From NCBI GenBank assembly GCA_030649735.1, contig JAUSFL010000021.1, positions 1 through 32,769 on the forward strand: a stretch of DNA of 32,769 nucleotides. Direction: 5' to 3'. The position numbers and the translations under genes were made by a program. Positions 1,182 through 32,769 of this stretch are shown piece by piece. This stretch comes from Candidatus Iainarchaeum sp. (GTDB lineage Archaea; Iainarchaeota; Iainarchaeia; Iainarchaeales; UBA10191). The notes beneath the pieces were generated by a model. That model saw only the letters and a list, made by a program, of their open reading frames with translations. It was not told the DNA's origin and did not search any database. The stretch's first letter is position 1; each line of letters opens with the position of its first letter.

Positions 1182-3839
1182 TTATGCGGGAGTCTTGCAG
1201 AATTGGAAGCTATTCCTGAAATTTTGGTCAAGCCCTGCCATTGCGTCAAGCTGGTTGTAGAGTTTTTGCTCATTCCACCAAAAGTCGGCCATTGCGTTTC
1301 CGTCAGCCTTTAGGCAAATGTATCCTTTTGAGACTCCTTCAAACACTCCGGCCAATGATTCAACATCAACTGAGTTTGTTGCGTCATATTTTGGGGCGTA
1401 ATTAAGGCTTATTTCAGTGTTTCCATTCCTTGAAATTTTCAATTCTGGCATTGCGTAAATTAAATTGTCCTTGTTGTCGCAGCCAGGGTGTATTTTATAG
1501 ATTGAGTCTTTCAAAGTGTAAAACACTGTTTGCGCGTAAACAAAGTTTTTGTCAGAAACTTGCGTCAAGCCAGTCCAAGAAAATCCAAAAATGCCTGAAC
1601 GGTCAGTGTTTGAAGGCGAATTGCAGTTTGAACCGGGGTAGTTTTGCAGGTTTGCGTCAGGCTTGCTGTAAAAGTTTGCTGACAATAATGTCGTGTTAAA
1701 ATCCATGCAAAGGATTCCGCCAACCATGTTTGACGCGATTCCATTCCAGTAAGACATTTTTCCATTGGAGCCGGAAACTTGGATTCCTCCAACATTTCCA
1801 GTAGTCTCATTCTTTTTAATGTAATAGAATGCGTCGGCATTGTTTGAAGGCTGGACTGCGCTGTTTTGCACAACAGTTCCTTGATTTATGCGCATAAGCA
1901 CTGGAGTTGCGTTGCTTAAGTAGCGCGTTATCGAGTATGATTTTGGAGCATTCGTTGCGCTTACCCTTAAAATTCCGCCTCTTTCCTGCTGGTTCATCAT
2001 TGAAAAGTCATTGAAATTTTCTCCAGTGTCAGTGACGTCAATTGCCAGCACTGAATTTTCGGCATTTCCGCCAACTGTCGGAGGATTTCCTTCCGAAACA
2101 ATCAGCAAGTTTTTGTCGCTGCCCGGGCCAATATAGCTGCTTCCATAACCTTGCCTTTCATAAGTTCCTCCGGAAGCGCTTTCAACAAAGCCGATTTTTC
2201 CATCAATTGGCAGGTAATAGAAAATGCTGTCTGGCGCAGGGCTTGTTTTCTTCAGCAAGTAAATGTTAATGTCTGTGTTGATGTTTCCGTTAAGAATGAA
2301 TTTTCTCAATGAATTGTCATCATAAGTGTCCGGGATTTTTATTAAAACTTCATACAATCCGGGGCCTTCAAGAACAGGTTCTGCGGCTCCAGGCAAGTTA
2401 AGCTGCACTGCCTCATCAAGATGGTCCCTGTTTGAAATAAGCAGTATTTTAAAATGGCTTGAGTCTGCAAAGAACTTGAAAAAGTTTCCATCCCCGTCAA
2501 ACCAATTGTTTGTCTGCACGAAAACTCTTGTCCTCAAATGGAAAATCAGGTCATTGATCAAGTCTTGCGAATAGCCGTCTTTGGAAAGGTAGGCTGCAAA
2601 ATTTTTGAGCGATGAAAGCTCTTGCGCTGGATTGCTTGAAGGCTCGCCTAAAGTGTCGTCAGTGTTTATTTTGTCGATTCTTTCAAGCCTTTTCAATAAT
2701 TCCATGCTGAATTGCGCTGCATCGCAGTAATGGTAGTATCCTGAAGGGTCGGAGTTCGTGTCGCATTCTATTCTTGAAGTGCTGGCCCAGTCCCAATTAA
2801 GCCTTACTTTGGGGACTGCTGCAGTTCCGTAATAGCCTGTCTTTAGCTGTCCGTTTTCTATTCCAGTGCAGGAATCGGCCTCTTGGCCTTTGACTTTAAT
2901 GCTGAACTTTTTTTCAGCGACTGGCTTTATTTGCAGCAGTGTCGGCTCTGACCTTTTCTGGAATCTCATCACGCCTTGATTTGCGTCAGTGTAATTTACG
3001 TCAAGGTAAAAGTTGATGTCCCTTGGCAAATATAGAGCGCCAGGGTATTCCAAGTTTATGTCTTGGGTTAAAACTATGAATTTTTTAGAATCTATCCTAA
3101 GGCCCGAGGGATTTACTTTCCAGCCGCATTTCAGCCCGTTCTTTGCGCACTCTGGAGAATTAATGTCAGTAATTCGCATGTCAATTCCTGAAAGATTCTG
3201 GATTGTCCACACTATTTGCGCGCTTGTAGTGCGGCCTTGCTCTAAAGGAAGCAAGGTTATCCTTGAACCGTAAATTACAAGCAATGGCGAAAAAACCAGG
3301 ACATTAAAGTTTGCGTCAGTTTTCCAGTCAGAGTCTGGAATTGCTGGATTTTCAGGATTTATTGCCCATTTTAGCCATTGCACATCGACCTTGTAAACTC
3401 CTTCCACGTTAAAGTCATAAATTTTTGAAGGGCTTACTCCATCGCAGACTGACTGGCTGCTGCAGGCCGGGCAGTCGGGGACTGAACTGCACCAGTAGCC
3501 TTGACCGCAAGAGACTCCAAAATATGCGGTTGCATTAAAGTTACCTGCAGTAAGATTGGATATTTTTGCCCTGTGCGGCGGAATATGAGAGCTGTTGTCT
3601 CCATCTTCGCAATGAACAGTGTAAAGCCCGTTGATTTTTCCAATCATTGTTGAAAAAACCGGCACGACATATCCTTGTGCCATGCTTCCGTAAGAAGTGC
3701 CTAAAGGGGTTTCCCAGTTTATGTCCACTGAAACTGATTTTTCGTCGCCTGGAACCATTGAAATCATGCAGCCAGCGCTTGCAAAAGCTGCAAAAAGCCC
3801 AAAGAAGGCGATTAAAGCAATCAATATTTTATAATTCAT
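1182..3839 (-). CDS. Large secreted surface protein (885 aa), Cys-rich, function unknown
   Basis: N-terminal signal peptide MNYKILIALIAFFGLFAAFASA; many Cys and N-x-S/T sequons; start overlaps the upstream stop by 4 nt. Confidence 0.8.
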   Translation of the reverse strand: MNYKILIALIAFFGLFAAFASAGCMISMVPGDEKSVSVDINWETPLGTSYGSMAQGYVVPVFSTMIGKINGLYTVHCEDGDNSSHIPPHRAKISNLTAGNFNATAYFGVSCGQGYWCSSVPDCPACSSQSVCDGVSPSKIYDFNVEGVYKVDVQWLKWAINPENPAIPDSDWKTDANFNVLVFSPLLVIYGSRITLLPLEQGRTTSAQIVWTIQNLSGIDMRITDINSPECAKNGLKCGWKVNPSGLRIDSKKFIVLTQDINLEYPGALYLPRDINFYLDVNYTDANQGVMRFQKRSEPTLLQIKPVAEKKFSIKVKGQEADSCTGIENGQLKTGYYGTAAVPKVRLNWDWASTSRIECDTNSDPSGYYHYCDAAQFSMELLKRLERIDKINTDDTLGEPSSNPAQELSSLKNFAAYLSKDGYSQDLINDLIFHLRTRVFVQTNNWFDGDGNFFKFFADSSHFKILLISNRDHLDEAVQLNLPGAAEPVLEGPGLYEVLIKIPDTYDDNSLRKFILNGNINTDINIYLLKKTSPAPDSIFYYLPIDGKIGFVESASGGTYERQGYGSSYIGPGSDKNLLIVSEGNPPTVGGNAENSVLAIDVTDTGENFNDFSMMNQQERGGILRVSATNAPKSYSITRYLSNATPVLMRINQGTVVQNSAVQPSNNADAFYYIKKNETTGNVGGIQVSGSNGKMSYWNGIASNMVGGILCMDFNTTLLSANFYSKPDANLQNYPGSNCNSPSNTDRSGIFGFSWTGLTQVSDKNFVYAQTVFYTLKDSIYKIHPGCDNKDNLIYAMPELKISRNGNTEISLNYAPKYDATNSVDVESLAGVFEGVSKGYICLKADGNAMADFWWNEQKLYNQLDAMAGLDQNFRNSFQFCKTPA

Positions 3840-5518
3840 TTTTTCTTCCTTTTTTTCTTTTTCATCAATGTCAATGCGACAAAAATCATGAAAACTCCAA
3901 TGAGCAATACTATTGCTTCAATGATTAAAATAATTGTGCTTCCGCCAAAAAGCCTTTGCTCCGCGGCGCTTTGGCCGCCTGAAACCTGCTGATTTTCAGC
4001 AACAAGGCCTATCGAAATTATTTTCTGGGTTTTTGTGACATAATCAGTGACTGCCAGAACGTATTTTTTGCTTGGGTCAACGCGGATTATTCTTGAAATG
4101 CAGTCTTTGCCTGCAAGGTTTTCCACGCTCACAAAATCCTGCATGCTTTCGCTCAATAATTGGTAGTTTGCATTGATTTCCTGGCCTGAAGGAAGAGTGC
4201 AGAATTTCATTTCAACTTCAGAATTGTCCCTGCTCCTGATTGCAGTTGAATCTAGAGAATAATTAATGATTTTTGAAAACTTGCTTGAGTCGTAAACAAC
4301 GCAATAACTGTCAAAAGTAACGCCCGACTTTTCAATCGCTTCGCAGACTTTATAGTTCAAAATCTCTTTTTGCGGCACAAACTCGAACTTGCTTGCAATG
4401 AAATTTATTTTATAATCAATCAATGGAATTTGCTCTGTCTTTTGCAGGAGAATTTCTCCAGTCTTCAAGTCTTGGACGCTGAATTTTAGCGAAAAATTCC
4501 TGAACTCTGGCCTTAGCCAATGGTCGGCGCCTGGGGAAATTACAGAATAGAACTCAGTGTTTTTTCCAGGCAGCAATTCAACGTTTTGGGAATATAATTT
4601 CCTGATCCTAGCGCTTTCTCCAACAACAACTGCCCTATTCCTGTACAATGAAATCAATTGCCCGTCCGCTTTTTTCACTTCAAGCCTTATTGAGTAAGCG
4701 TCAGGCCTTGAAGGCGCCTGCAGTGTAATGTCCGCTTCTGCGGTTGAGTTTGCATTGATTGAGCCAATTACTGCCTTGCCTTGTGAAAGGAAAGAACTGC
4801 AGAAAGTGTCATCCCAAACGCATAATGAGGCAGTGACTTCAACATTGCTTAATGCCTGGCCTGTAGTGTTTTGGACAAACACTTTTCCATTGATTGCGGC
4901 TCCTGGCTTTGTCGGAGGCCCTATAGGCCCTATTCCTGCCGGTTCTGGATTTCCGGAAGGATTTGGCCCTTCAACAGTCAGAATATTTTCCGAGTCCTTG
5001 AATTCTGTCGTGGCGCGCAGGATTTTTGCTTCGGGAAACCCTTGGCTTTTCGCGGAGTTTTTCACTGTGAACTGCTTGGCTTTTGCGCCGAGGAAAATGT
5101 GGGCCAGTCCAACAATTGCGCTTCTTTCAGTCCTGAAGTATGCGTCAATCCTGTAGTCTCCGGCACTCAAGTTTTCTGGAAGCTTGTATGAAAAATTGAT
5201 TTTTTTGCTTTCTGCGGCGCGCAGGTTTATTCCATCAAAGCTTTGTTCGAAGAAAATATTGTCTGCGCTTAAAGTGCTTGGGTAGTAAGGCTGTCCGCCC
5301 TTTGCCAATTCCACAACGACTTTGGCTTCGGCTATTGGAAAATTTTCCATGCTCAATACAGTAATTTCTGCATTGATGGTTTCTCCAGCAGTGTATTGTG
5401 TTTTTTCAATGCTTAAAATCAGGTCTCCGTTGACTTGCGAAGAGTCTGAAGTTGCAGCAAGCGCAAACGCCGCAAAAAACAGCGCGAAAAAGAAAATCGA
5501 AAATTTTTTGGAATTCAT
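3836..5518 (-). CDS. Type I membrane-anchored surface protein with probable Ig-like beta-sandwich domains
   Basis: Likely start MNSKKFSIFFFALFFAAFALA at 5518 (track start 5542 overlaps the upstream gene); YTAGETINAEITV and LSAGDYRIDA strands; C-terminal TM helix followed by KKKKRKKK. Confidence 0.8.
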   Translation of the reverse strand: MNSKKFSIFFFALFFAAFALAATSDSSQVNGDLILSIEKTQYTAGETINAEITVLSMENFPIAEAKVVVELAKGGQPYYPSTLSADNIFFEQSFDGINLRAAESKKINFSYKLPENLSAGDYRIDAYFRTERSAIVGLAHIFLGAKAKQFTVKNSAKSQGFPEAKILRATTEFKDSENILTVEGPNPSGNPEPAGIGPIGPPTKPGAAINGKVFVQNTTGQALSNVEVTASLCVWDDTFCSSFLSQGKAVIGSINANSTAEADITLQAPSRPDAYSIRLEVKKADGQLISLYRNRAVVVGESARIRKLYSQNVELLPGKNTEFYSVISPGADHWLRPEFRNFSLKFSVQDLKTGEILLQKTEQIPLIDYKINFIASKFEFVPQKEILNYKVCEAIEKSGVTFDSYCVVYDSSKFSKIINYSLDSTAIRSRDNSEVEMKFCTLPSGQEINANYQLLSESMQDFVSVENLAGKDCISRIIRVDPSKKYVLAVTDYVTKTQKIISIGLVAENQQVSGGQSAAEQRLFGGSTIILIIEAIVLLIGVFMIFVALTLMKKKKRKKK

Positions 5519-5528
5519 AAAAGCACCA

Positions 5529-8500
5529 TTAATCCCTTCCATTCCTCTTCAAGACATAATCATCCACTGAAAGCACTGAATATCCTTCCCCAGTCCATGA
5601 GACATTGTGCAGTGTCAAAGGAATTCTCTGCGCCTGGTTTGGCGCAGTGCCTATTATTTGCAGGCTTCTTGCAGCGCCATAATATGAGGCAAAGGCGTAA
5701 AGCTTGTCGCCAGCGTCATTTCCCCTAATCCAAGTGTCAACTTTAGGGTCGCTTGCAATCACTGTGAAATTCACGTCCATTATTGCGCCGCCGGCATAAG
5801 GAGAGCCGGGGAAATTTTTAATGCTTTCAATGCCATAAGCCATTTCACCCAAGGTAGTCTGCAATTGCCTGCCTGGAATTGCCTGCCCTTGAGGAGACCC
5901 ATTTGGGAAGTCAATGCTAAAATGATTCCATTCACTAACATATGAGCCTTGCGCAATAAGCCCGTTAATATCATAATAAACGTAAGAGTCACTGTGAGGA
6001 TTCATTATTTTTGCAGTGATTGTATCGATTGAGTTTTTGTCAAGTGCTGAAAGCCCTGAAAGATCCAAGTCAAAAGAGCCTAACGTACAGCTTCCTGCAA
6101 TAACTTGCCGCCCGTCCGACTGAGTGCAAGGATTTTTAACTTCCTTATCCATCTTGCAGCGAGTCACTGGAGGAATTCCAACTGATTCAGTAATGCAATT
6201 TATTGTTTTTTCAGTTCCATCCTTGAATTTTATCTTGATTGCTGGATCAGTCACCAATGCAATGTTTACATCATCGCTCACGTAAGTTTTGAACTTGATT
6301 TCATTCACTGCAGTTACTCTTTCATAAATGTGCGGGTCTGGATCCGTTGGCAATGGCGCAGTAATATAGTCATCAAAAGTCTCAAAATTGTTTGTCGCTG
6401 ATTCTGCTTTCACGCTGAAATAATATCGTCCAGGGGCAAAAGTTCTTGCAGGAACTTTAGTGTATTCCAGAACATCGGCCCTTATGTGCCAATCGAATGT
6501 TACTGGAATTCCTGCAGCGTCACCCAACGAGCCAATGAACGCAAGGAGTTTCGGGTCTTCGGAAATTGAAAATACGGGAACATTAGGGTCTGTATTGGGG
6601 CTTATATAACAGTAATTGTCAACTGCGTTTTCATCGTCAGTTGCTGTTGAAAGGTCAAAGTCTGTCTTTCCAGCGGCAAAGCAAGTGTTAGGGTATTGCG
6701 GATAATCGGCATAAACGATAAATTCCCTGCCTTGCTTCCAAGCCCCGTTTGCCGCATACTTGATTTCTGGATAGATTGGAAACTGGCCTGAAATTCCGTC
6801 AGGAATTCTTCCATCAAGGCTTACTGTAATTATGCTGCTGCTGGCATCAACAGCAATTGTTCCAACGCTTATTGTGGGATTTGTTGGATTTGCCGCGGGG
6901 GTTATTGAAAGCCTGACTCTCTCGCCATTGCCTGCATCAAACCCGTTCCTTAATTGTAGAATTATGCTTGAAGCGCAATTGTTGTTTTTCACTTTGAAAG
7001 TTCCAGTTTTGCCTGTTTTGGAGTCAAGGCACATTTTTGAGGCGTCAAAAGAGCAAGGGTTTGAATTCTCAATGAATTGCACGCAGGAAAGCTCGTCAGC
7101 CAATAGGCCTGGAACATTAGAGAATTGAATGTTATAGATTGCACTTGCCTCATAGCCTGGCATTTGATCAACTTGAACAACCAAAAACTTGCCAGTATCA
7201 TACCCATTAGACAAAGTTATTGAAGCAACGCCAGTAGAGTCTGTTTTAGGCTGTGGCATGTTTGGGTCATTATCCCCAAAAGAATTCAGTATTGGATTGT
7301 CAGCGACTTTCATTTTAATGGAAGCGTTTTGGACCCTGCTGCCGGTTATGGCGTCTGAAACAATGATTTGAAATTGCTGGTTAGCTGCGCTTGCAGTCAA
7401 AAAAGCAGGCACTGACACTGAATACCTGCTTGCGTTAATGTCAAAGTAAACGAAAGTGTTAGTGTCAGACATTGTTTCATCCAATGGCTTCAAGACAAGC
7501 AAAAGCTTTGTGTTTGTTTTCGAGACGCCTTTGATTTGAACGCTTAATTGCGGGGTTGATGTTTCATTTGCCAGCACTGAAAGGCCGCCCAGACTGTTCG
7601 GCACAATGTTTTCCGCAAAAGTCTTTTCTGGCGGAGTGCCAAAATCCAGTGCCTGGTTGTCTGTTGTAAAGTTTGCGTCAATGTCCGGCGGCGAACTCAA
7701 GTTTCGGCCACTTCGGTTTGTTATCTTGTAAAGAAAATTGTAATTCTGGTTGTAGTTCAGGTCAAACGCGTCATTGCTTTTTGGAGTCAAGTACGCTGTT
7801 GAATCCGGCTCGCAAGTGCCATCGCCGCTAGGCGAAGCCCTGCAGACTGCAAGCTCGTACTCAAACTTCGGGCAGTCTGTCCTGCAAAACAATTCGCCTA
7901 AAGTAAAGTAATCGCTTCTTTCCTGGAGATTCTTTGAGTCCGACTTTGCATTGTAGTAAAAATCAAGCCTTATTTTGGCGGCTGGCTGGCTTGGGTTTTG
8001 AAGCTTTTTGACGCGCACATTAACGCAAATTGAAGTCGAGCCAGTGGCCAAATTGCCTGTTGAAAAATTCACTTGCTTTGCAAAATAAAGTATTCCATCA
8101 ACAGTGCCATTCTGGTCTGGATAGTTTGCTGAAAGGACTGGAAAATAGTTTGGAGGCAGGCCGCTTTTAATGTCCATGTTCAATCCGGTCGCATTTGGAA
8201 TTGAATTAAGGCCGCTCCTGAAATGGGCAGTGACATTGCTTTGGCCTGCTGATTCTGGAACCACAATGTCAAAAATCAGGCCGTAAACTTTTTCCTGGTT
8301 TACTGCAATTTGAGCCGGCTTTGTGTCCCCAGAGACTATGACGCATCCTTCAGGGAATAATTCCCTCCTTAAAGTGATGTTGAATTCTGGATTGTCTGCA
8401 GGATTCTGCAAAACAACATTCACCAGAGTCGGATGCGCAGCATCGCTCCTGTAAAGCCTGCTGACTATTTGAGTGTAAGGCAAAAAATTGCCTTTGGTAA

Positions 8501-10343
8501 CCAAAATCTTGACTTTCTTGTCAACCCTGAAGTATGCTGGAGTCGTGGTCTCTCCGGCAGCATTTGTTCTTGCAGTGAATTTTGCATTAACGTCAAAAGT
8601 GTCAGCGCTTATTGACTCATAAAAGAAAACATTAGCGTCGCTTACTGGAACGCCTGCCTTGTCAACGACCTTGACTTTCAAGTTTGCGATTCCCAGGCTT
8701 AAAGTCACATTCAAGTCCAAAACTTGGCCAAGCTCCAGCCCGTCAGGGCCTGCAAGCCCGTTGGCGTCAACAGACTGGCTGTTTAAAGTGTAAGTTTTTT
8801 CAGCGTACGCAATGTAATCGCCGCTTTCAAAATTCTCGTTCCCAAAATTAGTGAACCCTTTGTCGTCAGTCCTGCTGATCCATGGAACAAACATTCCGCC
8901 ATCTGCTGAAGTGTTGTACAATTTTACCAACGCGTCTGAAACAAGCCCTTGCGTGCCGTTTCTTTCAACCTCGCTTTTAACAAAAACATGGATGTTTCCA
9001 TAATTTCTTGGAGTTTCTGTCGCCTTGAAAAGCAGGACTCTTGTAAAATTCGCGTCAGTAGGGCTTCTTGGCAAAACCTGCAGTGTTTTTGAAACAAAGC
9101 CGGCCAGGCTAATCCGTGCGTAGTATAATTTTCCATTCCTTGCGCCGCCAATAACCACTTTTCCCTCTTCATTTGTTATCATTGGGGAAGCCTGAAATGA
9201 GCCTGCCAGCGAATAATAAACTGAAGCGCCTGAAAGAGGCAATAGATTGTTCGCGTCCAAAACCTGGATTTTCAGGTTTTTTTCATCAGATGGCGGAATT
9301 CTGGAAAGCAAAATAGTGGCTTCCGCGGTTTTTCCGACTTCAACCGCAATCAATGAAGTTTCGTTCGAGTCAAAAGCCCTATTAATGTCGTCAGCAGCTG
9401 AAACAAAGTAGTTTCCCGGAGTTTCTTCAAAAACAAAGCTTCCAGCCTCGTCAGTCCTTCCAGTCTGCTTTGGAGTTGTCCTGTCATTCTTATATAGTGT
9501 GAGCGCAAAATTTCCAAGCAATGCATTGGTTGCCTTGTCCCTTACAAAAACCTTGAGTTTTCCTTTCTGCGGAGGTTCTGGATTCATGTCAAAAAAAGTC
9601 AAGTCATCAACCAGCGGCTTTGTCACTGGCAAATAACCCAGGATTTCAACGCTTGCTTCAATGGCTCCACAGCCATTAAGCTCTGTTGGAGTCACGACAA
9701 TGTCTGTGGTGCTTAAAGCGTCCTTGGTTTTTGAAAGAATGGATTTTCCGCTAGAGCAGGAAAAGCTTGCTTCGATTTTTTGATTGTCAATTCTTGGCTT
9801 TCTTGGAAGCGAGGCATCTCTCACAATGATTTTCTTTTCAGCAAGGGGCAAAATAACCTGTTTTTTTTCAAGCTTTAATATTATAGTGCTTGTGTCAATC
9901 GTGATTTTTTCAGGGCTTGGGCTTTTGTAATCCAAAAAGCCTTCCTTTTTGACAAAAAACGCAAAATTCAGGTTTCCTGAAAGCTTTTCAATAGTGAAAG
10001 TTCCGTCAGGGCCAGTAACTGAATTGCCTGAAAGCATTGCCGCAGCGCCTTCAATGCCATAATTATAATCCACCCTGACTCCAGAAACAGGGTTTTTTGA
10101 GGAAAGCTCCAGCACTTTCACGGTTATTGAATACTGCGGCGATGAAAAGAACAAAAGCCAGAAAATTCCCAAAAACAAAAGCAAAATCACAAGGCAAAAG
10201 ACTGCAAAGCTTGGAATGACTTCATCAATCGGGTCAATTACCTTGTATATTGGAACGCCTTTGGCCTCAATCCAGTCCAAGGCAGAATAATACCTGTCTT
10301 CCAAGGAATAATAAAAGTCCTTCAAAGCCCCGACAAAGTCCAT
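5529..10343 (-). CDS. Giant N-terminally anchored surface protein (1604 aa) with repeated carboxypeptidase-regulatory-like (prealbumin-like) domains
   Basis: TM helix at about aa 46-66; about six repeats of type LKVxVxD...PxSxAxV...TDxxG (e.g. LKIQVLDANNLLPLSGASV..TNEEG, LKVKVVDKAGVPVSDANV..TNAAG); Cys pairs in the C-terminal half. Confidence 0.8.
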   Translation of the reverse strand: MDFVGALKDFYYSLEDRYYSALDWIEAKGVPIYKVIDPIDEVIPSFAVFCLVILLLFLGIFWLLFFSSPQYSITVKVLELSSKNPVSGVRVDYNYGIEGAAAMLSGNSVTGPDGTFTIEKLSGNLNFAFFVKKEGFLDYKSPSPEKITIDTSTIILKLEKKQVILPLAEKKIIVRDASLPRKPRIDNQKIEASFSCSSGKSILSKTKDALSTTDIVVTPTELNGCGAIEASVEILGYLPVTKPLVDDLTFFDMNPEPPQKGKLKVFVRDKATNALLGNFALTLYKNDRTTPKQTGRTDEAGSFVFEETPGNYFVSAADDINRAFDSNETSLIAVEVGKTAEATILLSRIPPSDEKNLKIQVLDANNLLPLSGASVYYSLAGSFQASPMITNEEGKVVIGGARNGKLYYARISLAGFVSKTLQVLPRSPTDANFTRVLLFKATETPRNYGNIHVFVKSEVERNGTQGLVSDALVKLYNTSADGGMFVPWISRTDDKGFTNFGNENFESGDYIAYAEKTYTLNSQSVDANGLAGPDGLELGQVLDLNVTLSLGIANLKVKVVDKAGVPVSDANVFFYESISADTFDVNAKFTARTNAAGETTTPAYFRVDKKVKILVTKGNFLPYTQIVSRLYRSDAAHPTLVNVVLQNPADNPEFNITLRRELFPEGCVIVSGDTKPAQIAVNQEKVYGLIFDIVVPESAGQSNVTAHFRSGLNSIPNATGLNMDIKSGLPPNYFPVLSANYPDQNGTVDGILYFAKQVNFSTGNLATGSTSICVNVRVKKLQNPSQPAAKIRLDFYYNAKSDSKNLQERSDYFTLGELFCRTDCPKFEYELAVCRASPSGDGTCEPDSTAYLTPKSNDAFDLNYNQNYNFLYKITNRSGRNLSSPPDIDANFTTDNQALDFGTPPEKTFAENIVPNSLGGLSVLANETSTPQLSVQIKGVSKTNTKLLLVLKPLDETMSDTNTFVYFDINASRYSVSVPAFLTASAANQQFQIIVSDAITGSRVQNASIKMKVADNPILNSFGDNDPNMPQPKTDSTGVASITLSNGYDTGKFLVVQVDQMPGYEASAIYNIQFSNVPGLLADELSCVQFIENSNPCSFDASKMCLDSKTGKTGTFKVKNNNCASSIILQLRNGFDAGNGERVRLSITPAANPTNPTISVGTIAVDASSSIITVSLDGRIPDGISGQFPIYPEIKYAANGAWKQGREFIVYADYPQYPNTCFAAGKTDFDLSTATDDENAVDNYCYISPNTDPNVPVFSISEDPKLLAFIGSLGDAAGIPVTFDWHIRADVLEYTKVPARTFAPGRYYFSVKAESATNNFETFDDYITAPLPTDPDPHIYERVTAVNEIKFKTYVSDDVNIALVTDPAIKIKFKDGTEKTINCITESVGIPPVTRCKMDKEVKNPCTQSDGRQVIAGSCTLGSFDLDLSGLSALDKNSIDTITAKIMNPHSDSYVYYDINGLIAQGSYVSEWNHFSIDFPNGSPQGQAIPGRQLQTTLGEMAYGIESIKNFPGSPYAGGAIMDVNFTVIASDPKVDTWIRGNDAGDKLYAFASYYGAARSLQIIGTAPNQAQRIPLTLHNVSWTGEGYSVLSVDDYVLKRNGRD

Positions 10344-27254: not shown

Positions 27255-27686
27255 TTGAAGGATAAGAAAATCTGCACGCCAAACAATGCATTCTGCATTA
27301 GCGAAAAAAAAATAATCCTGGCTGTTTTTGCGGCAATCGCGATAATTGCCATTGGAGTGAGCTATTTTGCAATTATTGAAAAAACATCTTCAGACTATAA
27401 TTCGGGGGCCATTAAAATTCTCCTGCAGTCAGTGGACAAATTCACTATATCAATTGCCCTAATTGTAGGATTGGTAATAGTGTCAATTTCAGTACTGGCC
27501 TTCAGGAAAAACCAGTCCGCAAAATTTCTGCTGATAACACTGGCTTTTGGAATTCTGGTCCTAGAATGGGCATTAAAGCTCATTGACCGCTATTACATTC
27601 CTGGACAATTGCTTTACGACCCCATTGAAAACCTGCTTGAATTGACAGTCCTTGTATTCATTGCATGGGGCCTTTTCAGGAAATGA
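27255..27686 (+). CDS. Small four-TM membrane protein coupled to the downstream winged-HTH gene
   Basis: AGGAGG RBS before TTG start; four hydrophobic segments; LAFRKNQSAKFLLITLAF. Confidence 0.75.
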   Translation: MKDKKICTPNNAFCISEKKIILAVFAAIAIIAIGVSYFAIIEKTSSDYNSGAIKILLQSVDKFTISIALIVGLVIVSISVLAFRKNQSAKFLLITLAFGILVLEWALKLIDRYYIPGQLLYDPIENLLELTVLVFIAWGLFRK

Positions 27687-28234
27687 GGTGTTTTAAAATA
27701 GCCGAAGAACACGAAGCATTACAGCTTGACACCAGAAGCAGGCTTTACAATGAAATCCGCAAAAGCCCCGGCCTGCACTTTCGAGAGCTTCAAAGGCGCG
27801 TGAACATGGCCACTGGAGCCCTCCAGTACCACTTGGATTATTTGGGAAAAAAATCACTCATTAAAAGCGAACGCGTTGAAAACACTAAAAGATTTTTTGT
27901 AATGCAGTCAAAGCGCATTGAAGGCGAAGAGCAAATAATGCCTTTCTTAAGGCAGGAAAAAACCCGCCACATCCTAATGGCAATGCTTTCCGGAAGAAAA
28001 AACACCATTCAAAGCCTTGCGCGAAAAACCCAAACCCCTTACAGCACTACGTCCAGGCTGCTTGACAAAATAGTCAGGGCAGGAGTTTCGCAAAAAACGC
28101 GCAAAAGCAAGCAAATACACTATATTCTTGAAAAGCCGGAAAACATTACTGAAATGCTCATAACTTACAGGAAAAGCTTCCTTGACGACTTGGTTGACGA
28201 GTTTGTCGCGACAGTGCAAGAATTAAAAACCTGA
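27683..28234 (+). CDS. Double winged helix-turn-helix transcriptional regulator (ArsR/HTH_24-like)
   Basis: RSRLYNEIRKSPGLHFRELQRR..MATGALQYHLDYL; second HTH around LARKTQTPYSTTSRLL; start uncertain (ATG 27683 or ATA 27698). Confidence 0.85.
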   Translation: MRCFKIAEEHEALQLDTRSRLYNEIRKSPGLHFRELQRRVNMATGALQYHLDYLGKKSLIKSERVENTKRFFVMQSKRIEGEEQIMPFLRQEKTRHILMAMLSGRKNTIQSLARKTQTPYSTTSRLLDKIVRAGVSQKTRKSKQIHYILEKPENITEMLITYRKSFLDDLVDEFVATVQELKT

Positions 28235-28257
28235 ACTGCGTCAAATTTAATGATTTT

Positions 28258-28896
28258 ATGATAATGGACATTGAGCAAAGCCTGAAAACATGCAAAAAGC
28301 ACAGGCTGCCTGTGGCAGAGTTTGCAATTGCAAAAACACCAAAGCAGGCAGTGGATGCTGGAAAAAAGCTTGGCTATCCGCTTGTTTTGAAGATCATAAG
28401 CCAGCAAATACTTCACAAGACTGAAGCAGGCTGCGTCAAGGTTGGAGTTAGTGGAGAAAAAGAAGTTTCCAAGGCATTTGAAGAAATTGAAGAAAACGCC
28501 AAAAAATTCGATAAAAAAGCCAAAATTGAAGGCGTGCTTTTGCAAAAAATGAGCAAGGGAATTGAATTGATTGTTGGCGGAAAAAAAGACGAGCAATTCG
28601 GGCACGCAGTAATTCTAGGAATTGGCGGAACCGCAGTTGAAGTCTACAAGGACTATTCAATGAGAATCTGCCCAATAACCGAGCAAGACTTTGAAGAAAT
28701 GCTTTCAGAAATCAAGGGCAAAAAACTCCTTGAAGGCTTTCGGGGAAGCAAGCCAATAAACAAGGAAATTTTGAAAGCCATTGTTTTGAAGACTTCAGAA
28801 ATGCTTGTTTCAGAACGCATCAAAGAGCTTGACTTGAACCCGGTAATGTGCAATGACAAGGAATGCACGATTGTTGACGCAAGAATCATCAAATAA
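28258..28896 (+). CDS. acdB: Acetate--CoA ligase (ADP-forming) beta subunit, ATP-grasp
   Basis: LGYPLVLKIISQQILHKTEAGCV, GVLLQKM..GIELIVG..D.QFG, IKELDLNP, IVDARI. Confidence 0.9.
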   Translation: MIMDIEQSLKTCKKHRLPVAEFAIAKTPKQAVDAGKKLGYPLVLKIISQQILHKTEAGCVKVGVSGEKEVSKAFEEIEENAKKFDKKAKIEGVLLQKMSKGIELIVGGKKDEQFGHAVILGIGGTAVEVYKDYSMRICPITEQDFEEMLSEIKGKKLLEGFRGSKPINKEILKAIVLKTSEMLVSERIKELDLNPVMCNDKECTIVDARIIK

Positions 28897-28908
28897 CGCG
28901 CGATTTTA

Positions 28909-29322
28909 ATGATTAGAAAAAAACCAGCCCTGTTTTTAATCAAAAAGAAAATTGAAAGCCAAAGACTGCTCAAACCCATTGTGAATCGGAAACTGCTTCG
29001 CGAAAGAATGGAAAGGCAGCAAAAAATTAATGAAACACTCTCTTTCGCACTAAAGCTTAAAGCAGGAGATTTTCAGGCCAGAAAGCCAAAGCCTTGGGAA
29101 CTAAAAAACGGCGCTTGGATTGTCTGCGACTTTTCAAGAGACGGCAAAAGCAAGGCAATTGGATTAATTACTGACTCTTTCCAAAGAGACAGAAGAAAAT
29201 TCCTGATGGTAAAGGCGGTTTTTGTCACTGACTTAACGCAGGAAAAAAGCTTCAGGAAAATAAAAGGAGAATCCCACCTTTCAGTGCTTGCAGAAAACGT
29301 GTTATTGGTTGAAAGCAACTAA
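28909..29322 (+). CDS. Basic hypothetical protein
   Basis: Open frame 12 nt after acdB; K/R-rich N-terminus and beta-rich C-terminal half. Confidence 0.6.
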   Translation: MIRKKPALFLIKKKIESQRLLKPIVNRKLLRERMERQQKINETLSFALKLKAGDFQARKPKPWELKNGAWIVCDFSRDGKSKAIGLITDSFQRDRRKFLMVKAVFVTDLTQEKSFRKIKGESHLSVLAENVLLVESN

Positions 29323-29365
29323 TAGTTTTAAAAAACAGCAAATATTCCATGCAATAAGCCAGCTT

Positions 29366-30118
29366 TCAAACCGGCTTTGCTCTTTCCCACTCTTGAAGGT
29401 AGAATTTCCTGTAATGCTCGAAAAGGCCGTCGCTTGAAATGACCACTGCAGTCTTTGACTCTGAAATAAAATCAAGAATTATTATTTTTTTGGCAAACAA
29501 GACTGTTGTTGCTGGAAAAATGATTTTTGAAAACCTGACGAACTTCCTGATGTCCTTCCACCTGTCCTTGTAAATTCCAGTATAAATTTGCATTGATTTC
29601 ACATTATCCATGAGCTTCACGCCGAGCTTCTTGTAATACCTCAATGTGCCGATCTTGTTCCAGAATTCTATGACTTCTTCAAACTTGTTTTCTTCGGCAA
29701 TTGAAAAGCCAAGCCATTCGTCGCCTTCTTTTGAATTCTCTATCAAATTGACAAAAAGGCTCTTTATGGAATTCATTCCTTCATACACTTCCACAGCCTG
29801 GCGGTTTTCCGAAAAAACCATTATCTGCCTCATTTTAGGCACTGCTTCCTCAATTTCCCTTTGCTTGTCCTTGATTGCCGAAAGCAGCATTTGAGGGTCT
29901 GAAGCCTGAAAATATTTGGTTTTTCCTTTAATCACATAATTGGCAAACCCTTTTGCCCTCAAGGAGTCAAGGACAACATAAATTTTTGATTGCGGAACTC
30001 CACACTTTTTCACTAGGGGGCCTGTTGTAGTGCTGCCAAGGTGCAGCAGCGCAACATACACTCTAGACTCCCAATTGTTAAGCCCGGCATCCGAAAGTAT
30101 TTTGTCAAACTCCAACAA
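29366..30118 (-). CDS. TrmB-family transcriptional regulator
   Basis: GLNNWESRVYVALL..G.TT......GVPQSKIY.VL.SL..KG; VEVYEG link to C-terminal sensor domain; TTG start (30118 or 30115). Confidence 0.9.
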   Translation of the reverse strand: MLEFDKILSDAGLNNWESRVYVALLHLGSTTTGPLVKKCGVPQSKIYVVLDSLRAKGFANYVIKGKTKYFQASDPQMLLSAIKDKQREIEEAVPKMRQIMVFSENRQAVEVYEGMNSIKSLFVNLIENSKEGDEWLGFSIAEENKFEEVIEFWNKIGTLRYYKKLGVKLMDNVKSMQIYTGIYKDRWKDIRKFVRFSKIIFPATTVLFAKKIIILDFISESKTAVVISSDGLFEHYRKFYLQEWERAKPV

Positions 30119-30127
30119 ACCACCAAC

Positions 30128-30160
30128 TACTACCTACAATAGGAGTAAATAATTTATAAA
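30128..30160. promoter_or_regulatory. Divergent promoter: palindromic TATA box plus imperfect inverted repeat (operator candidate)
   Basis: TTTATAAA at 30153-30160; TACTACCTA-CAA-TAGGAGTA at 30128-30147. Confidence 0.5.
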
Positions 30161-30196
30161 TATATGGCCTGCGGAAAATAAGTAAGGTGTGAACAA

Positions 30197-31564
30197 ATGA
30201 AAAAGAAAGCAAAACAGCCTTTGGAGAAAGTAAAAGCGCTAAGCAACTGGATAAGCAGGGCACCGGCAATATTCAGCTATCCTGTGCTTTACACAGAGTT
30301 CCTGGCAAGCCAAGATGAAAACTCGCAAAAAATCAAAAAAATGCTAAGCGCGGGAATTGTAGAACGCTTTGGAAAATGCCATAGTTTCAACGACGAACCG
30401 CGTTTTGAGCAGTATTACGCGCAACACGGGTTTGATGCTAACGAGAACCTGCACGGCAGCTCAGTTGACCTGGATGCAGAAAGAGCCAAAATCAAGGCAA
30501 TCGGAGAATGCTTCGAAAGGCTTTCGCTAATAATGCCAAGAACTGCCAAAACAATAAATGCCAGTTTTGAAGAGCTTTCCCAGCTCAAAAAGCAAGCCAT
30601 TAATCCTGCAGAATGCCTGAACTTTCCAGACAAGTACTTGCCAGTTCCGAGAAAAGAATACGAGGAAGTCTTGAGAAAAGACAGGATGAAATGGGTTTTG
30701 GGAAAAAACATTCTTGACAACAGCCCGGCATTCCTGCCATACCAGCTTGTTTTCCTGCCGACCACGAAGGAATTCGGGTCAGACCCATTGATCAGGAACC
30801 CAATAACCACTGGAACAGCTTGCGGCGACAGCTTTGAAGACGCAGCATACCGAGGATTGATGGAATGCGTTGAAAGAGATTCCAACATGCTTTCATGGCT
30901 TGCAAAAAGAGAAGTTCCAAGAATCATTCTAGACACTAAATTCTTTGCAGAAATAGAAAAATATCTTGCAAGATACTCGCTAAAGCTATTCGTGTGGGAT
31001 TTCACCACAGACATCGGAATTCCATCAATAATGGCAGTAATAACAGACGATTCAGGCCTGGGGCCCGCGGTTTCTGCAGGAACAAAAGCAGACTTAAACC
31101 CATCAAAAGCAGTTACAGGCGCAATTTATGAAGCACTCCACAGCAGGTTCTGGATAAGAAGCATTTACTACACAAGAAAGACAAGAATAACAAGGCCGAG
31201 CCAAATAATAGACCTGCAAGACAGGGGACTATACTGGTTTGACAGAAAAATGCTGAAAAACATCGACTTCTTGATTTACGCAAAAAAAAGCGTGAAACTT
31301 TCAAAAATGAACGACCTGTCAACACAGGAAAATTCAAAGCTTGCCCTTGCCGCAAAAATGCTCAAGCAAAAAAACATTGAATCATACCTGATTGACATAA
31401 CTCTTCCAGCAGTCAAAAATGCAGGATTTCACGTGGTAAGGACAATAGCGCCAGAACTGCATCCAATGCACTTGAACGAAAACAACCCATACCATTACAG
31501 CAAAAGACTGGAAGAATTGCTTAAAGGCTGGAAAGTCAATGAAATTCCCGCGCCATTCCTGTGA
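30197..31564 (+). CDS. ycaO: YcaO-family cyclodehydratase, stand-alone
   Basis: AKIKAIGECFER, TTGTACG, AAYRGLMECVERD ATP-binding motifs; DFTTDIGIP; Pro-rich C-terminus IPAPFL; AAGGTG RBS. Confidence 0.92.
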   Translation: MKKKAKQPLEKVKALSNWISRAPAIFSYPVLYTEFLASQDENSQKIKKMLSAGIVERFGKCHSFNDEPRFEQYYAQHGFDANENLHGSSVDLDAERAKIKAIGECFERLSLIMPRTAKTINASFEELSQLKKQAINPAECLNFPDKYLPVPRKEYEEVLRKDRMKWVLGKNILDNSPAFLPYQLVFLPTTKEFGSDPLIRNPITTGTACGDSFEDAAYRGLMECVERDSNMLSWLAKREVPRIILDTKFFAEIEKYLARYSLKLFVWDFTTDIGIPSIMAVITDDSGLGPAVSAGTKADLNPSKAVTGAIYEALHSRFWIRSIYYTRKTRITRPSQIIDLQDRGLYWFDRKMLKNIDFLIYAKKSVKLSKMNDLSTQENSKLALAAKMLKQKNIESYLIDITLPAVKNAGFHVVRTIAPELHPMHLNENNPYHYSKRLEELLKGWKVNEIPAPFL

Positions 31565-31573
31565 GGTGAAAAA

Positions 31574-32344
31574 ATGCTACAAGCGTCAAAAGAATACCTG
31601 AAAAAAGCAGTTCCAATACTGGACGTTCCATTAGCCAACACTACAGTGGACAAGCTTCCGGAATCATGGCTGAAAATATTCTACAAAGAATACCCGCGCT
31701 TCAAAAGCTTGCAGTTGCAAACAAACAGCGGAAAAACAAGCCTGGACTTGCTATTGCTCAAAAGAGAAAGCGCGAGAAAATTCTCCAAAAAGCCAATAAG
31801 CTTCAAGGCAATTTCAGACATCATTTACTGGTCTTGCGCAGAAAAGCCAAAACTGAAAAACACTTCATTCCCGAGAAGAATGTATCCTTCAGGCGGCGGA
31901 AGATACCCAATTGAAGCATACCTGTTGGCATTCAACATTGAAGGCTTGAACAAAGGAATATACCATTATAACGTAAAAGAAAACAGGCTTGAGCTCTTGC
32001 TTGAAGAAGACACCTCAAAAGAGACCAATAAAATAATGTTCAACCAGCTTGAAAACCCCGCGGGAGTCATTGTTCTTTCACCAACAATGAGCCGAATCGA
32101 AGTCAAGTACGGAACAATCGCGCTAATGATAGCACTCTTGGAAACAGGCCACATTGGCCAAAACATATGCCTTAAAGCAACAGAACAAGGAATTGGCTCT
32201 TGCGCAATAACTGGCTTTGAAAGGAACGCAATGGCCTGCCTTTTGGACCTTGATGCAGAAGAAGAGATTCCAGTATACTGCATAGCATTAGGAATTACCC
32301 ACAAAGGGAGTAAACAATCATTTAATACTTCAAAAAAGAAATAG
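31574..32344 (+). CDS. SagB/ThcOx-family FMN-dependent azoline dehydrogenase
   Basis: KRESARKF, RRMYPSGGGRYP, GIYHY, VKYG (Lys-Tyr motif), LETGHIGQN; GAGGTGA RBS. Confidence 0.92.
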   Translation: MLQASKEYLKKAVPILDVPLANTTVDKLPESWLKIFYKEYPRFKSLQLQTNSGKTSLDLLLLKRESARKFSKKPISFKAISDIIYWSCAEKPKLKNTSFPRRMYPSGGGRYPIEAYLLAFNIEGLNKGIYHYNVKENRLELLLEEDTSKETNKIMFNQLENPAGVIVLSPTMSRIEVKYGTIALMIALLETGHIGQNICLKATEQGIGSCAITGFERNAMACLLDLDAEEEIPVYCIALGITHKGSKQSFNTSKKK

Positions 32345-32361
32345 GTTTAGGAGGCGAGAAA

Positions 32362-32559
32362 ATGAATGCAATAAAACTAACACCGCAAATGATACTCGGG
32401 TTTTCCGGAGAGTCAAGCTGCAGTTGCAGCGAAATAATGGCAAAAGAGCTCTTGCGCAAAATCAGGGAAAAAAGCAAGGCAATAAAATACAGCACACAGC
32501 CATCAGCAGCAAGACTTGGCGAACTCCTGGGGCACATAAAAGAAATTGAAGAAGTATAA
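32362..32559 (+). CDS. 65-aa peptide, candidate RiPP precursor
   Basis: GGAGG RBS at 32350-32354, 17 nt gap after the dehydrogenase gene; GFSGESSCSCSE tract at aa 13-24. Confidence 0.6.
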   Translation: MNAIKLTPQMILGFSGESSCSCSEIMAKELLRKIREKSKAIKYSTQPSAARLGELLGHIKEIEEV

Positions 32560-32623
32560 AATTCAAAATATTAAACTGCTGCAGTTTGCACTCGCTTAGC
32601 CATGCGCAAAAAATAAAAAACAA

Positions 32624-32630
32624 TTATAAA
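32624..32630 (+). promoter_or_regulatory. TATA-box candidate for the aminotransferase gene
   Basis: TTATAAA after an A-rich BRE-like tract, ending about 21 nt before ATG 32652 (leaderless geometry). Confidence 0.5.
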
Positions 32631-32651
32631 CCCAAAAGCGCTAATTTTAGC

Positions 32652-32769
32652 ATGGCATTCAGCGGCTTAAGCAAGAGGATTCGCGAGCTTCCGAAAAGCA
32701 ATTTTCCCGCAATCATTAAAATGGCTGAAGAAGACAAGAGCATTATTTCCTTAGGCATTGGAGAGCCTG
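32652..32769 (+). CDS. PLP-dependent aminotransferase class I/II, N-terminus only (runs off window)
   Basis: Not in ORF track. Manual translation MAFSGLSKRIRELPKSNFPAIIKMAEEDKSIISLGIGEP matches the ISLGIGEPD N-terminal motif. Confidence 0.8.
   Translation, partial: MAFSGLSKRIRELPKSNFPAIIKMAEEDKSIISLGIGEP

Follow-up and report, generated by a model that had tools for sequence, protein, structure and literature searches.

A YcaO-SagB gene pair with a conserved small peptide gene on an accessory island of a groundwater archaeon, a candidate azol(in)e-type modification cassette

The DNA analysed here, referred to below as the window, is a complete contig of 32,769 nucleotides (JAUSFL010000021.1 of assembly GCA_030649735.1; C31 in our numbering) from Candidatus Iainarchaeum sp., an archaeon of groundwater origin whose genome of 1.28 Mb is assembled in 51 contigs at 92.7% completeness. 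Close to the right end of the window lie, in one orientation, genes for a YcaO cyclodehydratase (ycaO), a SagB-type flavin mononucleotide (FMN) dehydrogenase (sagB) and a 65-residue peptide (pep65), divergent from a gene for a TrmB-family regulator; these genes, and the candidate peptide-modification system that they may form, are the subject of this report. Genome size and completeness make the term reduced-genome archaeon a fair one, and the neighbouring genes in the window are archaeal in type (Nop domain, NMD3, beta-CASP, prolyl-tRNA synthetase type). The central features are as follows.

29366-30118, minus strand: TrmB-family winged-helix regulator, 250 aa, divergent from ycaO (PF01978, 52 bits, residues 8-75 only)
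30119-30196, no strand: divergent intergenic region, 78 nt (sequence inspection)
30197-31564, plus strand: ycaO, SagD-type stand-alone YcaO cyclodehydratase, 455 aa (TIGR03604, PF02624)
31574-32344, plus strand: sagB, SagB-type FMN dehydrogenase of the azoline oxidase type, 256 aa (TIGR03605, PF00881)
32362-32559, plus strand: pep65, candidate substrate peptide, 65 aa (homologues, selection on codons, predicted YcaO binding)

This arrangement had been put forward in an earlier reading of the bare sequence (the original prediction), and the positions and orientations of the four genes were confirmed, as were the gaps of 9 nt between ycaO and sagB (31565-31573) and 17 nt between sagB and pep65 (32345-32361). 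Purine-rich boxes resembling ribosome-binding sites precede each plus-strand gene by 4-7 nt (AAGGTG at 30184-30189 for ycaO, GAGGTGA at 31563-31569 for sagB, and GGAGG at 32350-32354, 7 nt upstream of pep65). Within the divergent spacer of 78 nt, the sequence shows an AT-rich TATA-like box at 30153-30164, and the spacer would act as the promoter region. The next gene, which encodes an aminotransferase, indeed has a TATA candidate of its own, a AATTATAA box at 32622-32629 ahead of the ATG at 32652; judged by the identical gene on contig C23 of the same genome, this ATG is most likely the start, rather than the listed TTG at 32586. TrmB-like regulators of 250 aa form a multi-copy family in the nearest relatives, with five matches in a genome of the same genus (G001) and one and seven in two genomes of the same family (G002 and G003). 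The window protein reaches at best 32% identity in these three genomes, which gave paralogue-level matches only and no orthologue, and the C-terminal domain of the family has no Pfam match.

The YcaO protein scored 248.5 bits against the NCBIfam SagD family TIGR03604 (curated cut-off 219.25) and 192.6 bits against PF02624, and only 91.9 bits against the thioamidation equivalog TIGR03266, for which the cut-off is 365. The E. coli-type YcaO equivalog NF040716 was not among its three NCBIfam matches. Alignment of eight clade members, with 27-56% identity to the window protein, revealed E104, E107 and R108 as well as E223, E226, R227 and D228 to be invariant in all eight, and we take these acidic and arginine motifs to be the published ATP-binding residues. 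Azoline-forming YcaOs carry a C-terminal proline-rich PxPxP motif; the window protein ends in P451-A-P453-F-L, and its homologues at two distant loci (L008, a Pacearchaeota record, and L009, a Planctomycetota record) end in P-x-P-H-P-F-M, with P451, P453 and F454 invariant. By sequence and fold, the nearest solved relatives are the cyanobactin heterocyclases LynD and TruD, MusD, the YcaO of M. jannaschii and McbD. The AlphaFold2 model is weak (mean predicted local distance difference test score, pLDDT, 62.5) and falls below 50 for residues 1-96, which have no confident fold, so that the model is neutral on whether a RiPP recognition element (RRE; RiPP, a peptide made by the ribosome and modified post-translationally) lies there. 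A word-based search of 5.8 billion proteins returned four clusters of closest homologues (46-56% identity, 450-457 aa). Scoring 8000 candidates with the eight-row YcaO profile gave six proteins at E <= 1e-20 and did not recover the L008-type protein, so the small size of the family is partly a limit of the search tool.

SagB scored 122 bits against TIGR03605 (cut-off 78.4) and also matched PF00881. Its K178-Y179 aligns with the K-Y of the BmdC oxidase and of the SagB-type dehydrogenase structure 8pz5, a pair that is catalytic in McbC (PMC8442711). Sequence matches in the PDB comprise a putative nitroreductase, the non-ribosomal peptide synthetase azoline oxidase BmdC, the cyanobactin oxidase CyaGox and McbC. 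An RRE would not fit into the 61 residues ahead of the nitroreductase domain.

Searches for partner proteins revealed no second YcaO in the 92.7%-complete genome, no match there to TfuA (PF07812, with a working positive control in M. acetivorans) or to the C-protein families TIGR03603 and TIGR03882, and none to TIGR03693, for which the search had no positive control. Among the proteins of the accessory island described below, none matched a C protein (E1-like or Ocin-ThiF-like) or an RRE in Pfam or NCBIfam. With no second YcaO, TfuA or C-protein family found, the YcaO is a D protein that stands alone and is paired with a B protein. Nothing else sets the cassette apart from canonical systems as much as this missing C-protein/RRE partner, a point that the original prediction did not raise. 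A partner is usually required for canonical azoline formation, stand-alone YcaOs make amidines in bottromycin biosynthesis (PMC8442711), and the fold and sequence matches include MusD (7u58), a YcaO that has ATP-dependent peptidase activity. An enzyme with a different amide-activation chemistry (forming an amidine or macroamidine, thioamidation, or cleaving peptides at the expense of ATP), alongside a SagB with another redox role, is nevertheless distinctly unlikely here: the YcaO lies above the SagD cut-off and far below that of the thioamidation equivalog (91.9 bits vs 365), TfuA was not found in its own genome, and the translationally coupled SagB carries the K-Y motif of azoline oxidases.

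The third gene encodes a peptide that, like its relatives, has no Pfam, NCBIfam or PHROG match. A word-based search identified two relatives of 65 aa, with 98% and 63-65% identity, and a HMMER scan of 1.84 billion representatives with a three-row profile gave seven matches, three of which were accepted as small homologues (P0006, P0011 with 81 aa and P0012 with 65 aa); the other four (P0008, P0009, P0010 and P0013) are long and internally repetitive and were judged spurious low-complexity matches. Thirteen columns are invariant across the family (T7, Q9, M10, L12, G13, S15, G16, E17, S18, S19, S21, A27 and P47). Eleven of them fall within residues 7-21 and form a motif T-x-Q-M-x-L-G-x-S-G-E-S-S-x-S, so that in the peptide a variable, helix-prone half (approximately residues 26-63) comes after a Ser-rich motif at the N-terminus. 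Cysteine is present in three of the four peptide lineages and absent from that of P0012, P0014 and P0015, which makes the Ser-rich motif the conserved feature. The earlier description as a Ser/Cys peptide thus holds for the invariant serines (S15, S18, S19 and S21) and not for the variable cysteines. The ESM Atlas yielded no usable feature match for pep65, and its DnaJ-like structural helix rows lay under a template modelling (TM) score of 0.5 or under our bar.

Neither the missing family match nor the low-confidence ESM Atlas model would distinguish pep65 from a chance open frame beside a mere enzyme pair. This explanation is refuted as far as sequence goes, and we regard it as barely credible. 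Homologues with 39-65% identity share the length and the invariant motif, the ratio of non-synonymous to synonymous substitution rates (dN/dS) between pep65 and its tandem paralogue on contig C23 is 0.27 with an excess of third-position differences (16, 17 and 32 at codon positions 1, 2 and 3), and GGAGG stands 7 nt upstream. Conservation in other assemblies and lineages, together with this purifying selection, indicates that the open reading frame (ORF) is a real gene, beyond chance.

The link between peptide and enzyme was followed through the cluster look-up, in which peptide P0011 and YcaO P0005 are each on two contigs, the longest 9740 bases, and peptide P0014 and YcaO P0002 are each on two contigs, the longest 196245 bases. 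Hence two of the four closest YcaO clusters match a member of the peptide family in both contig number and longest contig, a suggestive if indirect link between the two. The original prediction had been staked on the closest homologues having a comparable peptide, and as far as this is testable the outcome is favourable, with a peptide partner for two of the four clusters.

At greater distance, the adjacency of ycaO and sagB is kept at 28-35% YcaO identity (L004, L008, L009 and L006/L007), and in L008 and L009 a small Cys-rich ORF lies upstream of ycaO, the two sharing an invariant Cys/Gly-rich block. Homology of the window-type peptides to these Cys-rich peptides was considered and rejected (hhalign probability 0.25%, E 0.24). 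In the L008 locus (5750-8581, identical in L004 and L005), the peptide upstream of ycaO-sagB has 79 aa and contains the Cys-rich block, and directly downstream is a gene for a 201-aa H-E-x-x-H protein with no family match, which may be a peptidase. On the GC-rich bacterial contig of L006, a 127-aa ORF (1780-2163, minus strand) with a hydrophobic N-terminus and a Cys/Gly/Ser-rich tail is divergent from ycaO-sagB and could be spurious in such GC-rich DNA; a gene for a 567-aa protein (4438-6141, plus strand) follows sagB.

Prediction of a complex between YcaO and pep65 gave a score of 0.73 (0.72, 0.73 and 0.74 in the individual runs), compared with 0.00 for the best of three controls, with a partner pLDDT of 65-67 and at least 57% of contacts common to the runs. 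Of 80 solved complexes, 58 attained the score mark applied, as did 2 of 110 mismatched pairs, a calibration that is rough for alignments of our own such as those used here (8 rows for YcaO and 7 for the peptide). The predicted interface comprises residues 22-63 on the peptide side and residues 118-132, 147-162, 168, 177, 187-202, 338-339 and 426-430 on the YcaO side. This model supports binding of pep65 to YcaO through its helical C-terminal half.

Such binding would also be expected if the 65-aa protein were an accessory YcaO-binding subunit that replaces the C protein, with the true substrate elsewhere, and the complex prediction cannot separate a subunit from a substrate. The folded-looking helical half, the invariance of the putative core and the one lineage without Cys would suit a subunit. 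We nonetheless consider this unlikely, given that tandem duplication, divergence and copy-number polymorphism (see below) are typical of precursor genes, that the invariant Ser run lies just ahead of the docking helices, and that a tblastn search of the own genome found no other Ser/Cys-rich candidate, and no pep65 paralogue, besides the copies on contig C23.

These copies became apparent at the end of the window, which stops 210 nt past pep65. Contig C23 begins inside a 98%-identical copy of pep65, has a second peptide gene (63-65% identical) 8 nt later and continues into the same aminotransferase gene (start at C23:392). The assembly break thus reflects a strain polymorphism, with one peptide gene in the window and two in tandem on C23 (C23:1-334), and the two haplotypes are further distinguished by their sequence upstream of the aminotransferase gene. 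In X1, the probable source sample, both forms are present and similar in depth, the single-peptide one at 8.4 and the tandem one at 9.4. In X2, from a second study and with 95-99% likeness, the tandem junction appears as a loose end at 32555, and X3, from a third study and with 90-95% likeness, covers 28104-32504 and carries tandem-type sequence upstream of the aminotransferase gene; parts of the stretch had no coverage in runs X2 and X4. The second tandem copy is therefore present in contigs of three sequencing studies, and the comparison of contigs from X1 to X3 shows that the window holds the rarer, single-copy haplotype.

Comparison with the nearest relatives placed the genes on an inserted segment, whose further features are given here.

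28897-32651, no strand: inserted accessory island, approximately 3.75 kb (ATP-grasp stop to aminotransferase start)
28909-29322, plus strand: orf137, 137-aa protein at the left end of the island (ORF call)
32652-32769, plus strand: class I/II aminotransferase gene, 5' end (118 nt; rest on contig C23; PF00155, 227.5 bits for the full gene)

In G001, G002 and G003, the ATP-grasp gene, which in the window ends at 28896, is directly followed by the aminotransferase gene (19-nt gap in G001, where the aminotransferase orthologue is 76% identical), and the upstream helix-turn-helix (HTH) and beta-CASP genes are syntenic as well. The island genes were not found at this site in any of the three relatives. 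To judge from the adjacency of the flanking genes in these genomes, 28897-32651 is an insertion carrying orf137, the TrmB-like gene, ycaO, sagB and the peptide gene or genes. Its GC content (0.39-0.44) is not distinct from that elsewhere (0.40-0.45), and no flanking repeats or target-site duplication were detected, only 14-27-nt matches of chance quality. The orf137 protein has no Pfam, NCBIfam or PHROG match and was not found in G001-G003; its ESM Atlas leads were all below 0.9 and thus under our bar (sub-bar structural rows, which include S24/S26 peptidase-like clusters, were left unused), and its single-sequence AlphaFold2 model is unusable (mean pLDDT 48).

In a wider survey, the YcaO query matched two of the 61 genomes of the order, its own included, the other being a weak match to a 748-aa protein. 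TIGR03604 was matched at E <= 1e-10 in four of the 215 genomes of the phylum, with only the own genome above the cut-off. The cassette thus appears rare in its lineage and the island accessory. This distribution bears on the possibility that YcaO-SagB modifies a housekeeping protein, as do E. coli YcaO and the methanogen YcaO-TfuA pair, with the small ORF being incidental. Two source databases do name the YcaO homologues 'ribosomal protein S12 methylthiotransferase accessory factor', and archaeal YcaOs that modify McrA reportedly exist. The S12 name is, however, a transferred label with no NF040716 match behind it, the island is absent from all three nearest relatives, the family cut-off is unmet in 214 of the 215 phylum genomes and the peptide co-occurs with the YcaO clade, all of which makes a housekeeping target very unlikely.

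The original prediction had further described a self-contained minimal locus without an adjacent transporter and with a product that might therefore stay in the cell. A self-contained unit of YcaO, SagB and peptide in a reduced-genome archaeon was borne out; it is less minimal than supposed, as the 3.75-kb island adds orf137 and the commoner haplotype a second peptide gene. The statement about the transporter rested on the contig end and needs revising. Past the aminotransferase gene, C23 continues in one direction (1771-5354) with genes for an ATP-binding cassette (ABC) ATPase, two ABC-2 permeases (PF06182), MazG and CYTH proteins, so that an ABC-2 transporter set lies approximately 1.2 kb further on, beyond a single aminotransferase gene. 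The permease was not found in G001-G003 in a search without a positive control, and no transporter is conserved beside YcaO-SagB in L006, L008 and L009. The transporter appears to be lineage-specific too, yet is separated from the island by a conserved gene.

Set beside known systems, the cassette has the D protein, the B protein and the adjacent peptide of linear azol(in)e-containing peptides and thiazole/oxazole-modified microcins (LAP/TOMM). It lacks the C protein or RRE and is therefore filed as a variant rather than a canonical member. As in streptolysin S (SagBCD) and microcin B17 (McbBCD), a SagD-type YcaO is combined with a SagB that has the K-Y motif and with a small peptide, encoded next to them, that contains a Ser/Cys tract; precursor genes can be present in more than one copy, and an ABC-2 type transporter lies nearby, which we presume to be comparable to SagGHI. 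Unlike these systems, no C protein or RRE was found in the locus or the genome, the Ser/Cys tract of pep65 is N-terminal and invariant, with a long helical tail behind it, a leader peptidase was not seen, and the transporter stands behind a conserved housekeeping-type aminotransferase gene.

Stand-alone D proteins occur in bottromycin and trifolitoxin systems (PMC4603692, PMC8442711 and bioRxiv 10.64898/2025.12.02.691738). With bottromycin, the cassette shares a YcaO without a partner (PMC8442711, PMC4603692); the complex model would give pep65 a follower layout, in which an N-terminal part is modified and a C-terminal part recognised. In contrast to bottromycin, the island has no radical S-adenosylmethionine (SAM) methyltransferases, second YcaO or P450 and does have SagB, the candidate core of pep65 starts at about residue 13-15 and not right after Met, and the host is an archaeon. 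Trifolitoxin and tiarin systems likewise have no C protein and combine a YcaO-like enzyme with SagB-like FMN dehydrogenases and a small precursor, and clusters of this type have been reported in two archaeal phyla; tiarins are defined there by a TfxB-TfxC dehydrogenase pair carrying RRE domains (bioRxiv 10.64898/2025.12.02.691738), whereas the cassette has a single SagB of 256 aa and no aminoacyl-tRNA synthetase or GNAT immunity gene in the island. Among archaea, the TOMM families haloazolisins and thermoacidophisins were catalogued in 2015, with fused or discrete C proteins, and most precursors of haloazolisins have cores rich in Ser; the same source proposed that such clusters spread horizontally between archaea and bacteria (PMC4603692). 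The present cassette resembles these families in its archaeal YcaO and B protein, its regulator and the nearby ABC transporter (PMC4603692), and its clade differs from them in having no C protein. RiPP clusters, including YcaO types, have been described across Asgard, TACK and DPANN archaea, and functional characterisation of archaeal RiPPs is, by the same account, limited to a few lanthipeptides (PMC12144867, 2025). Titles and the starts of abstracts yielded no published description of this YcaO clade or peptide family, which may be included in supplementary listings.

Taken together, the locus appears to be a genuine, horizontally acquired, azol(in)e-type RiPP-like cassette, with a chemistry predicted from the enzyme families. 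We consider it reasonably probable that the approximately 3.75-kb accessory island carries a compact azol(in)e-type peptide-modification cassette with pep65 as its substrate. From gene order, families, motifs, conservation, selection, the insertion and the predicted interaction, we infer a substrate role, modified residues, follower recognition, TrmB regulation and product fate along the following lines. The TrmB-like regulator would control the promoter that it shares with a divergent operon of three or four genes (ycaO, sagB and one or two peptide genes). YcaO, which lacks both an E1-like or Ocin-ThiF partner and a recognisable RRE, would recognise the peptide directly, with the helical C-terminal half (approximately residues 26-63) docking, follower-like, on a YcaO surface formed by residues of about 118-162 and 187-202. 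Docking would present S15, S18, S19 and S21, and Cys20 and Cys22 where present, to the ATP-dependent active site for conversion to azolines, which the SagB flavoenzyme would oxidise to azoles. The product might then be exported through the nearby ABC-2 transporter or be retained in the cell.

Several observations weigh against this model. Canonical azoline-forming YcaOs depend on a C protein, which in these raises activity by orders of magnitude (PMC4603692), and none was found in this genome. Conservation within the peptide is highest in the presumed core, opposite to the usual pattern of a conserved leader and a variable core, and the lineage of P0012, P0014 and P0015, having no Cys, is left with the less reactive Ser only. 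In the predicted complex the N-terminal motif is not confidently placed, as confident contacts begin at peptide residue 22, the predictor is only roughly calibrated for such shallow alignments of eight and seven rows, and the YcaO model itself is weak (mean pLDDT 62.5). The closest homologues are linked through coinciding contig figures, in two of four YcaO clusters, rather than through observed gene order, and the peptides of the distant loci are unrelated in sequence and lie upstream, not downstream, of ycaO.

To our knowledge, no YcaO-derived peptide product has been characterised from any archaeon. If a modification cassette it is, an organism with a 1.3-Mb genome retains a horizontally acquired peptide-modification system. 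A more far-reaching version, which we put forward tentatively and hold to be doubtful, envisages an azole synthetase that needs no partner, reads a folded follower domain at the C-terminus in place of a leader and RRE, and acts on the invariant Ser motif, its product being a conserved functional molecule. In this version the system would move between ultra-small archaea of groundwater and might matter for their host-dependent life. As the modified segment would be conserved and not hypervariable, the product would in that case not be an arms-race toxin and might be an oxazole- or thiazole-bearing small protein or a cofactor-like, metal-binding or signal-like peptide. Docking of the follower type would amount to a minimal, RRE-free recognition for azole installation, useful for work on mechanism and for engineering, and three genes and a regulator make a cassette compact enough for synthesis.

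Further observations were made in the surroundings of these genes and in related genomes. In three genomes of another family, f27, of the same phylum (L012, L013 and L014), a different YcaO of 732-748 aa with a long N-terminal extension is encoded. In L013 (G060:C18, 364-3722), the one of the three loci that was inspected, the gene immediately after it is radical SAM/SPASM peptide-maturase-like, and this looks like a separate RiPP-like locus type. Contig C23 carries, on its minus strand (7607-9822), a radical SAM/SPASM gene adjoining a group-1 glycosyltransferase gene. In the window, 27665-28896 holds a gene for a two-winged-helix HTH protein of the HVO_0163 type and one for a 212-aa ATP-grasp_5 protein, both syntenic with the aminotransferase gene in relatives; the latter protein stands alone and resembles the beta part of ADP-forming acyl-CoA ligases. 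Towards the left end of the window, three consecutive large ORFs of 885, 568 and 1604 aa occupy 1182-10343 on the minus strand.

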